Virus record (IMG/VR): IMGVR_UViG_3300028591_000081
Location: 64,001 to 128,000 of that record
Origin: a virus
Lineage: Duplodnaviria; Caudoviricetes
Length of the DNA stretch: 64,000 bases
Direction: 5' to 3' (one strand)
The translations under genes and the position numbers were made by a program. The notes beneath the pieces were generated by a model. It saw nothing but the letters and a program-made list of their open reading frames with translations. It searched no databases and was not told the DNA's origin. This document shows positions 53,942 through 61,257 of the stretch, piece by piece. Every line of letters starts with the position of its first letter. Position 1 is the stretch's first letter.

Positions 53942-54166
53942 ATGAGCGGAAAACAAAAAGAGGAAGGAATCCTGATGAACGGCACCGTTTTGGAAGCGTT
54001 ACGAAACGCCATGTTCAGAGTAAAGATCGAAACTGGTCAGGAAGTTCTGGCCCACGTGTCTGGGAAGATTCGAAAGTTCTTTATCAGGATACTCCCCGGC
54101 GACACCGTGACCGTAGAGCTGTCCCCTTACGATCTGACTCGTGGCCGTATCATCCATCGTAAGTGA
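53942..54166 (+). CDS. infA: translation initiation factor IF-1
   Basis: [14 protein letters not shown]...[35 protein letters not shown]. Confidence 0.96.
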
Positions 54167-54171
54167 TCTGA

Positions 54172-54213
54172 TGTGGTGCTGGGTCTCGGAGAACCTAAAT
54201 TTCGTGCTATAAA
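54172..54213 (+). promoter_or_regulatory. GGTGCTG-box promoter
   Basis: TGTGGTGCTG-N23-TG-C-TATAAA. Confidence 0.75.
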
Positions 54214-57963: not shown

Positions 57964-58006
57964 TGTGGTGCTGAATCCTTCACCTATGAAATTTGTGTGG
58001 TATGAA
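57964..58006 (+). promoter_or_regulatory. GGTGCTG-box promoter
   Basis: TGTGGTGCTG-N24-TG-G-TATGAA. Confidence 0.75.
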
Positions 58007-58564: not shown

Positions 58565-59677
58565 ATGTGCAGTCCCGCAATCGTTGAGAAAATCATCAAT
58601 TTCCGCACTACCTTTGGAGATAAGGTCATTTCGTTAGACCTGTTTGATGCTGACTTCGACTTCGAGCGATTTACCTTGTGGCTTTCCTTGGATGACATCA
58701 GTACCCTCTGCGGCACTCCGGTATCTTTTCTAAAAGCATCTCGTGTGTTCAATTCTGGTATCTACAACAAAGACTGTGTGAGATACGACAATAACGGCAC
58801 CAAGTATGATCTCTCTGTGGCCATGTCGCTTCTGTATGAGTACACGCCTAAAGTTGGAGTGGAGTTCTTCCAATTCATTCTTCCGGTTATGTGTAAGTTC
58901 TACATGGAACAGATGACCAAGTTCGACTTCCAGATCAGTCAACTCCCTGTGAAACTGACCCAGTTCGGAATCAATTTGAAGGGAGTTGACTCCAGATCAA
59001 AGGATCTTGAGAGTAAAGTACACAGCCTCAGCGAACAGGTGAAATCTCTTCAGTCGGCCTTCCTTCATCTCAAAAACCCACAGACTTTATCCAACAAGAC
59101 CTGCTCCGACATGGTTTCTTCCACAAGTTTGGACAGCAGTATCTTCAAGGATGACCATGTAAATCCTTCCGATTTCTTTACCATTCCAGAATTTATGGCT
59201 ATGCCCAGCTTCCAGAAGTTGTTTTCTCTGAACAATGCGTATTCAGAGAGATCAAAACTTATGACCATGTTCAAGAGTGTGCTTACTAAGCAAGCGAACA
59301 ATCAGGTTCGTGGGGAAATCGCAAAGGCATTCAACATCTCATTCTATGATGCCAAAACCTTGTTGGACAAAATCCTGACCTCATGGAAGTCTCCGAACCC
59401 AGAGAAGTTGTCCGATATTTGTAGTCAGCATCGGGCAGACACCCTGCTCACAATGTTCCGTTATGGTACGCATTATCAGTTCAGCACTCAGAATGGCGTG
59501 CAATGGAACGTGTTATTGAAGTACCCTTACAAATTTCTTGTGAAGGTCGTATGTACTGCATTGGATCGTGAAGATTTGAATGAGATTATAGAGGTGATGG
59601 ATAACATGGGGTTGCTTGAGAATCACGATATGTTCAAGAAATATCAGGATGACGCGCAAAATGAAAATTACGTCTAG
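58565..59677 (+). CDS. DNA-binding protein with RhuM/Bro-N-like N-terminus and coiled coil
   Basis: TLWLSLDDISTLCG...YDLSVAMSLLY...VEFFQFI resembles RhuM-type domains. Confidence 0.5.
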   Translation: MCSPAIVEKIINFRTTFGDKVISLDLFDADFDFERFTLWLSLDDISTLCGTPVSFLKASRVFNSGIYNKDCVRYDNNGTKYDLSVAMSLLYEYTPKVGVEFFQFILPVMCKFYMEQMTKFDFQISQLPVKLTQFGINLKGVDSRSKDLESKVHSLSEQVKSLQSAFLHLKNPQTLSNKTCSDMVSSTSLDSSIFKDDHVNPSDFFTIPEFMAMPSFQKLFSLNNAYSERSKLMTMFKSVLTKQANNQVRGEIAKAFNISFYDAKTLLDKILTSWKSPNPEKLSDICSQHRADTLLTMFRYGTHYQFSTQNGVQWNVLLKYPYKFLVKVVCTALDREDLNEIIEVMDNMGLLENHDMFKKYQDDAQNENYV

Positions 59678-59932
59678 CCTGAAGCCCTTGCATATATGCA
59701 GGATGATCCTGTGTTCGAACTGTTCTTTGAGTTCCTGTGTCATATAGAATTTGCCCGGCAGAGCATGTCGGGATTATGAGGTGGAGACAGGTTTGGTCAA
59801 TAGACGCTAATAACGGTGAGATCTTTTCTGTCGATGAAACCTTACTCCGTGAAACAGGCTGGAGGATTCATAAGTCATCAAATTTTCGATTCTGGTGATG
59901 AAGAATTGGCCAGCCTTGTGGGAAGGCTTGGT

Positions 59933-60126
59933 GTCCTCCCCACATATACTGAGATGCTACTACGTGGAGTGGATGAGGTTTGCGATCTCAAGTCCTACCC
60001 ACATATACGGAGATGCTACTAGGTCGTGTGTATGAGGTCTGCGATCTCAATCTTCCCCCCATATACGGAGATGCTACCCCCCTGACTCAAACGTCGGAGT
60101 CCTCCCCCCATATACGGAGATGCTAC
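59933..60126 (+). CRISPR. CRISPR-like mini-array: four 28-nt repeats and three spacers; no cas genes in window
   Basis: Repeats at 59933, 59992, 60050 and 60099 (consensus GTCCTCCCCMCATATACGGAGATGCTAC); spacers 31, 30 and 21 nt. The repeats are certain; CRISPR identity is inferred from similarity to type I-E repeats. Confidence 0.5.
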
Positions 60127-60129
60127 TTT

Positions 60130-61257
60130 ATGCCAAACGAATCAGAAACAAACTTCGCTGATCTGCTCACGTCAATGACGGTCAGTGTGCCAGTAAAACG
60201 TCTTCCTTCCAATCCGTCCAAGAAAGTGACTACACAGGAGCCAAAGTTCCAGTCCGTATTTTCAGACAGATTTCAAGAGAGGTGTTCGTTCATTCTCGAT
60301 CTGTCCTATCTGTTGTATTACGGACATTTCCGTGGCAACGAACAACCATGGGTGGATACCCAATGGGTAGCTGACGTTGTTTTGAAATTGCTCAGTTCCG
60401 GGCATGAGGTGTTTATCGCTGTGGACGGAAGACCTGTTCGTAAACAGATAAACGCTTCCTATAAAGCCAATCGAATCCATACATACAACATCAAGGAGAA
60501 CATGCCACCGCTTCTGTTCAATCTGAACATGTGTCGGCGCGTCCATATTCATTACAATCCGTGTCTTGAGGCTGACGACATCATCTTCTCTCTCAACAGT
60601 CGTATGAGTGGGCAGAAGGTGATTGTGTCGAGCGATAATGACATGCTTCAGTGTCTTGGTAGTGATACAGTCATTGATACAGGGAAAGTCATTATCGACG
60701 CTCTGTCCTACCTTGACTATTTCAAAGAGAAGTTCCAAGGGGTTCCGATTCAGAAGCTACCCATGTACCGTTCCATCACGGGTGACGCTTCTGACAATAT
60801 GAGGCCCCCAGTATCGCGGTTCCCACATGCCTTGGCCGCGAAATTCGTGAAAGAGCTGGAGTTCGATTACTGGGATACAAAGTTCCCTGAAAGAGGTCTT
60901 ATCGTTGAGACTGTCTCGAAACTTGAAACTGAAAATAAGGTCTCTAAAACTGAGATGGCGTGGCTGAATAAACTGCTGGATGAGACCCTCCCCAAACAAA
61001 AGGAACTTACTCCTGAGGAAGAGGCCATGATTCCGTCAGATCTTCTCCCCTCTTCAGAAACCTCTTCATCCTACGACAAGTGGAAGCTCAATTATGAACT
61101 AATGAGGCTTCACGCCTACACGATGGACGAAATTTCGTATGAGCCAGACATGCATTATGAGGAACTTCCCGTAGGGTTGGTGACTCAGTTTAACAAGATC
61201 CTACGCGCTGATGCACAGTATGAACCATTACCATTGGAATGGAGGACTGACGAATGA
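60130..61257 (+). CDS. 5'-3' exonuclease / flap endonuclease (Pol I N-terminal, T4 RNase H-like)
   Basis: ILDLS, AVDG, YKANR, LEADDII, SSDNDMLQ, GDASDN; the GGAG RBS comes from the last repeat. Confidence 0.9.
   Translation: MPNESETNFADLLTSMTVSVPVKRLPSNPSKKVTTQEPKFQSVFSDRFQERCSFILDLSYLLYYGHFRGNEQPWVDTQWVADVVLKLLSSGHEVFIAVDGRPVRKQINASYKANRIHTYNIKENMPPLLFNLNMCRRVHIHYNPCLEADDIIFSLNSRMSGQKVIVSSDNDMLQCLGSDTVIDTGKVIIDALSYLDYFKEKFQGVPIQKLPMYRSITGDASDNMRPPVSRFPHALAAKFVKELEFDYWDTKFPERGLIVETVSKLETENKVSKTEMAWLNKLLDETLPKQKELTPEEEAMIPSDLLPSSETSSSYDKWKLNYELMRLHAYTMDEISYEPDMHYEELPVGLVTQFNKILRADAQYEPLPLEWRTDE

Follow-up and report, generated by a model that had tools for sequence, protein, structure and literature searches.

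The four 28-nt repeats at 59933-60126 of the window (the whole 64,000-nucleotide stretch that was analyzed, part of the 227,618-bp, 96% complete genome record of a gut jumbo phage) most probably belong to a second guide cassette, of which they make up the end that carries the spacers, in a phage TnpB-derived, type V-like CRISPR system. We give this reading a probability of roughly 0.8, a figure that covers the identity and origin of the window array. What the sequence shows is the joint occurrence of a scaffold RNA, the repeats, and a nuclease, together with pairing of the scaffold to the repeat in two places. To a separate claim, that functional guides are still made from the window copy, we give slightly better than even odds.

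Repeat array, scaffold RNA, and nuclease

The repeats (59933..59960, 59992..60019, 60050..60077, and 60099..60126, all on the + strand) have the sequences quoted in the initial annotation and are separated, also as described there, by spacers of 31 nt (59961..59991, +), 30 nt (60020..60049, +), and 21 nt (60078..60098, +). The repeat pattern has four matches in the real sequence versus none in 100 shuffles, and periods of 59/58/49, none divisible by 3, rule out a protein repeat. Spacers 1 and 2 are sisters with 5 differences over 30 positions; duplication, as in the earlier observation, is the best reading of the pair. Spacer 2 is homologous to the 33-nt first spacer of the relative L121 (shuffle p 0.0016). 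Spacer 3 is old and common to all relatives that carry this site (hereafter, site A). With its shortened and duplicated spacers, the window array looks old. We considered whether spacers 1 and 2 might follow two alleles of a coding gene and rejected this (best-frame conservation P=0.18); the back-translated pattern was not found, and the L121 version carries an indel.

The array had been called an orphan, a description that does not hold for the genome as a whole: the cognate nuclease and a second cassette sit just past the window end (genome 128000), and a structured scaffold RNA of ~185 nt (tracrRNA/omegaRNA-like; 59750..59932, +), overlooked earlier, lies directly upstream of the repeats and is fused to repeat 1. 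A genome scan located two further repeats at genome 128499 and 128563, ~500 bases beyond the window end, within cassette B (promoter box, scaffold, repeat, 36-nt spacer, repeat; genome 128261-128590). The TnpB-family nuclease P0001 (555 aa; genome 128608-130275) begins 17 nt after this cassette. The scaffold copies of cassette A (the window cassette) and cassette B are 84% identical over 231 nt, and the element occurs only twice in the genome. Scaffold plus repeat 1 folds with z=-3.3 in cassette A versus z=-6.6 in copy B, and the repeats on their own barely fold. In one of its hairpins, the window scaffold resembles cassette B and not its own orthologues, suggesting a recent exchange or conversion between A and B. 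Cassette B and the nuclease (~2 kb; genome 128240-130275 compared with L115:13385) are absent from relatives, and this block is flanked by a short TCCGTG direct repeat.

The phage has its own promoter-like motif, TGGTGCTG, followed after 23-24 nt by TGN and a -10-like hexamer, which occurs in the window at 54174, 55799 (-), 57966, 61673, and other positions. Cassette B bears this motif and cassette A does not, and a sigma-70 scan of the + strand ahead of the window scaffold returned nothing. Transcription of cassette A probably runs on from the box at 57966, and the window array and the exonuclease gene that follows it appear to be co-transcribed. The phage also encodes a translation initiation factor IF-1 (window 53942-54166); IF-1 comparison and a prophage search gave no host assignment.

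P0001 has an intact D-E-D triad and a zinc ribbon, and scores above the cut-off for the guided-TnpB family. Its predicted model resembles TnpB and Cas12f. There was no full-length match to the Cas12f, Cas12n, or V-U2 subtypes, the C2c8 profile gave 32 bits (cut-off 350), and the PADLOC matches span the RuvC half only. Some 25 relatives (470-590 aa) are distinct from ordinary TnpBs and form a monophyletic clade (SH-aLRT 100 in a quick tree), with D-E-D kept in 25/25 nucleases of this type. Out of 1.84 billion representatives, the clade accounts for about nine clusters at 50%, and no member was found in 185,579 GTDB genomes; it is apparently rare and phage-restricted. P0001 itself is a singleton, and the cluster of the exonuclease has 834 members. 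Going by the study labels in its record names, the clade apparently comes from samples of the ruminant and pig gut.

At each of the 16 homologue loci read, which lie on phage contigs of jumbo and smaller size, the nuclease is adjoined by related 28-nt repeats whose period is mostly 61 nt; two of the loci end at an assembly gap or contig end. These homologous arrays adjoin the nuclease in unrelated gene contexts, and at two loci cassettes lie on both sides of the nuclease gene. The two ordinary TnpB genes of the window phage (genome 21049-21465 [-] and 186780-187193 [+]) have no arrays. A Y1 transposase (tnpA) was found neither in the genome nor among the called neighbors of the homologue loci. 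In a second subclade, the array starts 20-65 nt past the stop codon (L108:5353-5376, L109:4470-4533), and therefore the scaffold must overlap the 3' end of the gene, as in ordinary TnpB. This arrangement is a possible earlier evolutionary state.

Pairing of scaffold and repeat

Two segments of the scaffold are complementary to the repeat. For anti-repeat 1 (59917..59926, +), the partner is the repeat's 5' half; for anti-repeat 2 (59845..59851, +), it is the GGAG arm at repeat positions 16-21, with 6/6 pairs for repeats 2-4 and, owing to one mismatch, 5/6 for repeat 1. A consensus fold of ten scaffolds contains 30 pairs, 24 of which show compensatory changes, and two of its helices reach the repeat. 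In these two scaffold:repeat helices, 95% of cells are paired and 8/11 pairs are compensatory. None of 500 shuffles matched the pairing or the covariation score, and slid controls reached 29-62%; the structure used for scoring had itself been derived from the alignment that was scored. Anti-repeats prefer the repeats of their own array (p=0.0002), and a compensatory change exists even within the window genome, where anti-repeat 2 of cassette A fits the GGAG arm and that of cassette B a GGGG arm. The scaffold is thus a putative tracr-like partner of the repeat, with predicted pairing at two sites. The palindrome that the initial annotation described as decayed does correspond to a weak repeat hairpin, which we attribute to pairing of the repeat with the scaffold. 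In L008:11858-11942, the 3' half of the scaffold is partly duplicated in tandem, and a different anti-repeat fits a different downstream repeat variant.

Type I-E features of repeats and spacers

The type I-E-like character initially assigned to the repeat was borne out: the window repeats are identical to published Vibrio/Klebsiella I-E repeats at 17-18 of 28 positions, with 14-21 of 28 identical positions for the published Vibrio cholerae/Klebsiella I-E repeats. These I-E systems combine a 28-nt repeat with a 33-nt spacer, a 5' pyrimidine, and an AA-type PAM, which in V. cholerae reads AAY on the spacer strand (bioRxiv 10.1101/2020.08.09.243105; PMC8847753). In the clade, 51/80 spacers are 33 nt long (those of the window are shortened), and 41/57 start with a pyrimidine when the register is shifted by one base for three arrays. 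All three readable protospacer flanks are AA; they derive from two overlapping spacers on opposite strands and one spacer that matches a scaffold gene, and one of them comes from diverged self copies. The near-identical phages L010, L105, and L106 carry entirely different spacers, showing turnover in the clade, though not in the window array. No cas1 or cas6e gene was found in the 96% complete genome. These features place the origin of the repeat in type I-E, and we infer that clade spacers were inserted by host type I-E Cas1-Cas2, as has been proposed for Cas12r.

The repeats differ from the I-E repeats in their hairpin, which has a free energy of -0.1 to -3.9 kcal/mol versus -11.7 to -15.2 kcal/mol, and the stable 7-bp Cas6e-type hairpin is not present in them. 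Cas6e requires the I-E repeat hairpin. An Rfam search matched neither a CRISPR nor any other family.

Spacers of the window phage had no targets in GTDB genomes or IMG/VR, no targets with an AA flank inside their own genome, and matches at chance level only in INPHARED phages and PLSDB plasmids. One spacer of another clade phage (L008:9870-9903) corresponds to the scaffold gene (L008:11642-11674), with 24/24 identity to its own downstream scaffold and a diverged seed region. Phages with the system therefore seem to target each other's guide RNA gene.

Present role of the window cassette and known systems

The GGAG of repeat 4 (60116-60119) lies 10 nt ahead of ATG 60130 of the downstream 5'-3' exonuclease gene (60130..61257, +; PF02739, E 7e-12; phrog_107) and doubles as its Shine-Dalgarno site. 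The earlier proposal that the last repeat provides the ribosome-binding site agrees with the final 19 nt before the ATG, which are invariant in 7/7 relatives read. The scaffold is intact in the relative L121 (94% identical), which has three repeats, shares the last spacer, and carries a spacer 2 that has diverged. In L114-L119, an insertion interrupts the scaffold, repeat 1 is decayed, a gene lies inside the array, and site B has no nuclease where the contig reaches it. The GGAG-to-ATG stretch is invariant even with a broken scaffold, which supports the ribosome-binding role and indicates that it can outlive the system. The insertion (L115:8195-8542, also in L114 and L116-L119, with the right end lost in L118) is a non-coding element, 348 nt long in L115, presumably with IS200/IS605-type ends. 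The gene in the array of L115 (8911-9894) lies between repeat 1 and the last spacer, has its own TGGTGCTG promoter-like motif, and encodes a 327-aa protein with no Pfam family.

The window cassette is either a working satellite source of guides or a relic of the same origin, kept only because its last repeat supplies the ribosome-binding site. We regard the relic as the less likely of the two, yet it accounts for short, duplicated, and drifting spacers, the mismatch of repeat 1, a fold weaker than that of cassette B, the rarity of the nuclease in the lineage, and the unchanged 19 nt before the ATG in L114-L119 despite their split scaffolds and the gene in the array. On the other hand, the scaffold is intact in both the window phage and L121, the same genome encodes an intact nuclease, anti-repeat 2 fits the repeat variant of its own array, and the scaffold shows apparent conversion towards cassette B. 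The intact scaffold and nuclease, matched anti-repeat, and apparent conversion suggest present use of cassette A.

The initial annotation had considered a crRNA mimic or Cascade decoy. A decoy RNA that soaks up the nuclease of rival clade phages, or host Cascade/Cas6e as an RNA anti-CRISPR, is improbable. Single-repeat inhibitors are known from phages (PMC11656645), the cassette persists in relatives with no detected nuclease, and the anti-scaffold spacer of one clade phage implies that these phages fight each other. However, wherever the nuclease was shown to be missing from site B of a relative, the scaffold is broken; moreover, the I-E hairpin is lost (energies above), and covariation is with the scaffold. 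The real partner of the repeat would be this RNA together with the phage TnpB-family nuclease. In addition, the repeats of described mini-arrays are identical to those of the host (PMC11656645), whereas those of the window phage vary among copies.

Still less probable is a regulatory leader in which either host Cas6e (Cas6 control was the earlier suggestion) or a complex of phage nuclease and scaffold that covers the GGAG processes repeat 4 and thereby controls exonuclease translation. Anti-repeat 2 does form 6/6 pairs with the GGAG arm of repeat 4, and array and exonuclease appear to share a transcript, but the Cas6e hairpin is absent, and the GGAG stretch is kept in relatives with a broken scaffold, indicating that translation needs no such control. 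Hardly credible are iterons or operators for the upstream 370-aa protein (58565-59677) in an origin, as once suggested from the replication-gene neighborhood: the same repeat occurs at site B away from the 370-aa gene, homologous arrays adjoin the nuclease in unrelated gene contexts, RNA covariation ties the repeat to the scaffold, the skew switch of an origin-like context is absent, and the repeats are largely decayed in common relatives. The 370-aa protein, previously labeled RhuM-like, has no Pfam, NCBIfam, or PHROG match and at best a weak Bro-N/P22_AR_N-like lead, and is kept at the site in relatives. A repeat-rich non-coding region outside the window (genome 48250-49150) is a better origin candidate than the array.

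Under the preferred reading of a TnpB-derived system, cassette A would be transcribed by read-through from the upstream operon, and scaffold, repeat 1, and spacer 1 would constitute a natural single guide, with the scaffold pairing in trans with the later repeat-spacer units. The guide RNA would load the 555-aa nuclease encoded 4.5 kb downstream and direct it to DNA that matches the first ~16-20 nt of the spacer and lies beside an AA-type motif; rival phages or plasmids are the likeliest carriers of such DNA. Because no target was found, this aim is deduced from Cas12r, phage mini-arrays, and the anti-scaffold spacer. New clade spacers would come from host type I-E Cas1-Cas2, and the window cassette would be an older, fixed copy, its last repeat co-opted by the exonuclease. 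A bolder reading, which we hold tentatively and at well below even odds, is that of an undescribed, phage-only type V subtype at the TnpB-to-CRISPR transition. In such a subtype, a scaffold of transposon type would still be fused to the first repeat, the I-E repeat would have been rewired from a hairpin to two anti-repeat duplexes with the 28/33 geometry kept, and host Cas1-Cas2 would reprogram a phage nuclease; the window would hold a working satellite whose last repeat starts, and may gate, exonuclease translation.

Several known systems share parts of this arrangement, TranC and Cas12r being the closest. TranC, as far as the available accounts describe it, has a TnpB-like effector of similar size, a tracr-like RNA with an anti-repeat, and a short array with no cas genes of its own, sometimes on phages (Jin et al. 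2025 Cell via PMC13565253; bioRxiv 10.64898/2026.03.27.714800). Its reported repeats are 32-38 nt and of unknown type in clades 3, 9, 11, and 20, unlike the 28-nt, putatively I-E-derived repeats with 33-nt spacers found here; LaTranC (PDB 9jfq) matches P0001 over the RuvC half only (E 3e-22), more weakly than plain TnpB. Cas12r of Thermus Lalka phages is likewise a phage TnpB-derived effector (564 aa) with degenerate I-E-like repeats, an A-rich PAM (here three flanks only), and an anti-MGE role; it lacks adaptation genes and is proposed to rely on the I-E Cas1-Cas2 of its host (bioRxiv 10.64898/2026.04.20.719267). In contrast, it uses crRNA only, with no tracrRNA and an array 15 bp after the gene (bioRxiv 10.64898/2026.04.20.719267), whereas here repeat 1 is fused to a covarying scaffold of ~185 nt; its carriers are phages of thermophiles rather than gut phages, and a satellite cassette exists here. 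Cas12p/'Cas12 hacker' is a miniature phage type V system with a 185-nt tracrRNA and repeat:anti-repeat duplexes (bioRxiv 10.1101/2025.01.20.633832), but has a 37-nt repeat and a GTN PAM, and gave no sequence match in a PDB profile search.

Among CRISPR-associated TnpB branches (V-U6 to V-U45), associations with arrays arose independently about 50 times, and stand-alone omegaRNAs of OMEGA systems act in trans (PMC10691335; PMC12669027). The main text gives no I-E link for these branches (PMC10691335; PMC12669027), and the P0001 clade may be one of them. Compared with V. cholerae/Klebsiella I-E, the hairpin is weak or lost, Cascade genes are absent, and the pairing partner of the repeat is a scaffold. 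Phage mini-arrays and RNA anti-CRISPRs also place few repeats on a virus with no cas operon, but they rely on host effectors and host-identical repeats (PMC11656645), unlike the nuclease and scaffold encoded here. A literature search, with the TranC and V-U branch lists outside its scope, found no paper on the combination of a fused scaffold, I-E-like 28/33 repeats, and a phage TnpB, which appears to be undescribed.

About 50 independent origins of TnpB-array associations limit the surprise of one more. The clade nevertheless offers a testable case of how phage type V systems that lack cas1 gain spacers, with host I-E Cas1-Cas2 and a predicted AA-type motif, and of the passage from omegaRNA to a tracrRNA and an array, for which close relatives present intact, satellite, and decayed states. 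Its nucleases of roughly 505-590 aa, with a naturally fused guide, are candidates for tools, and the last repeat of the window array represents a CRISPR repeat exapted as a ribosome-binding site.
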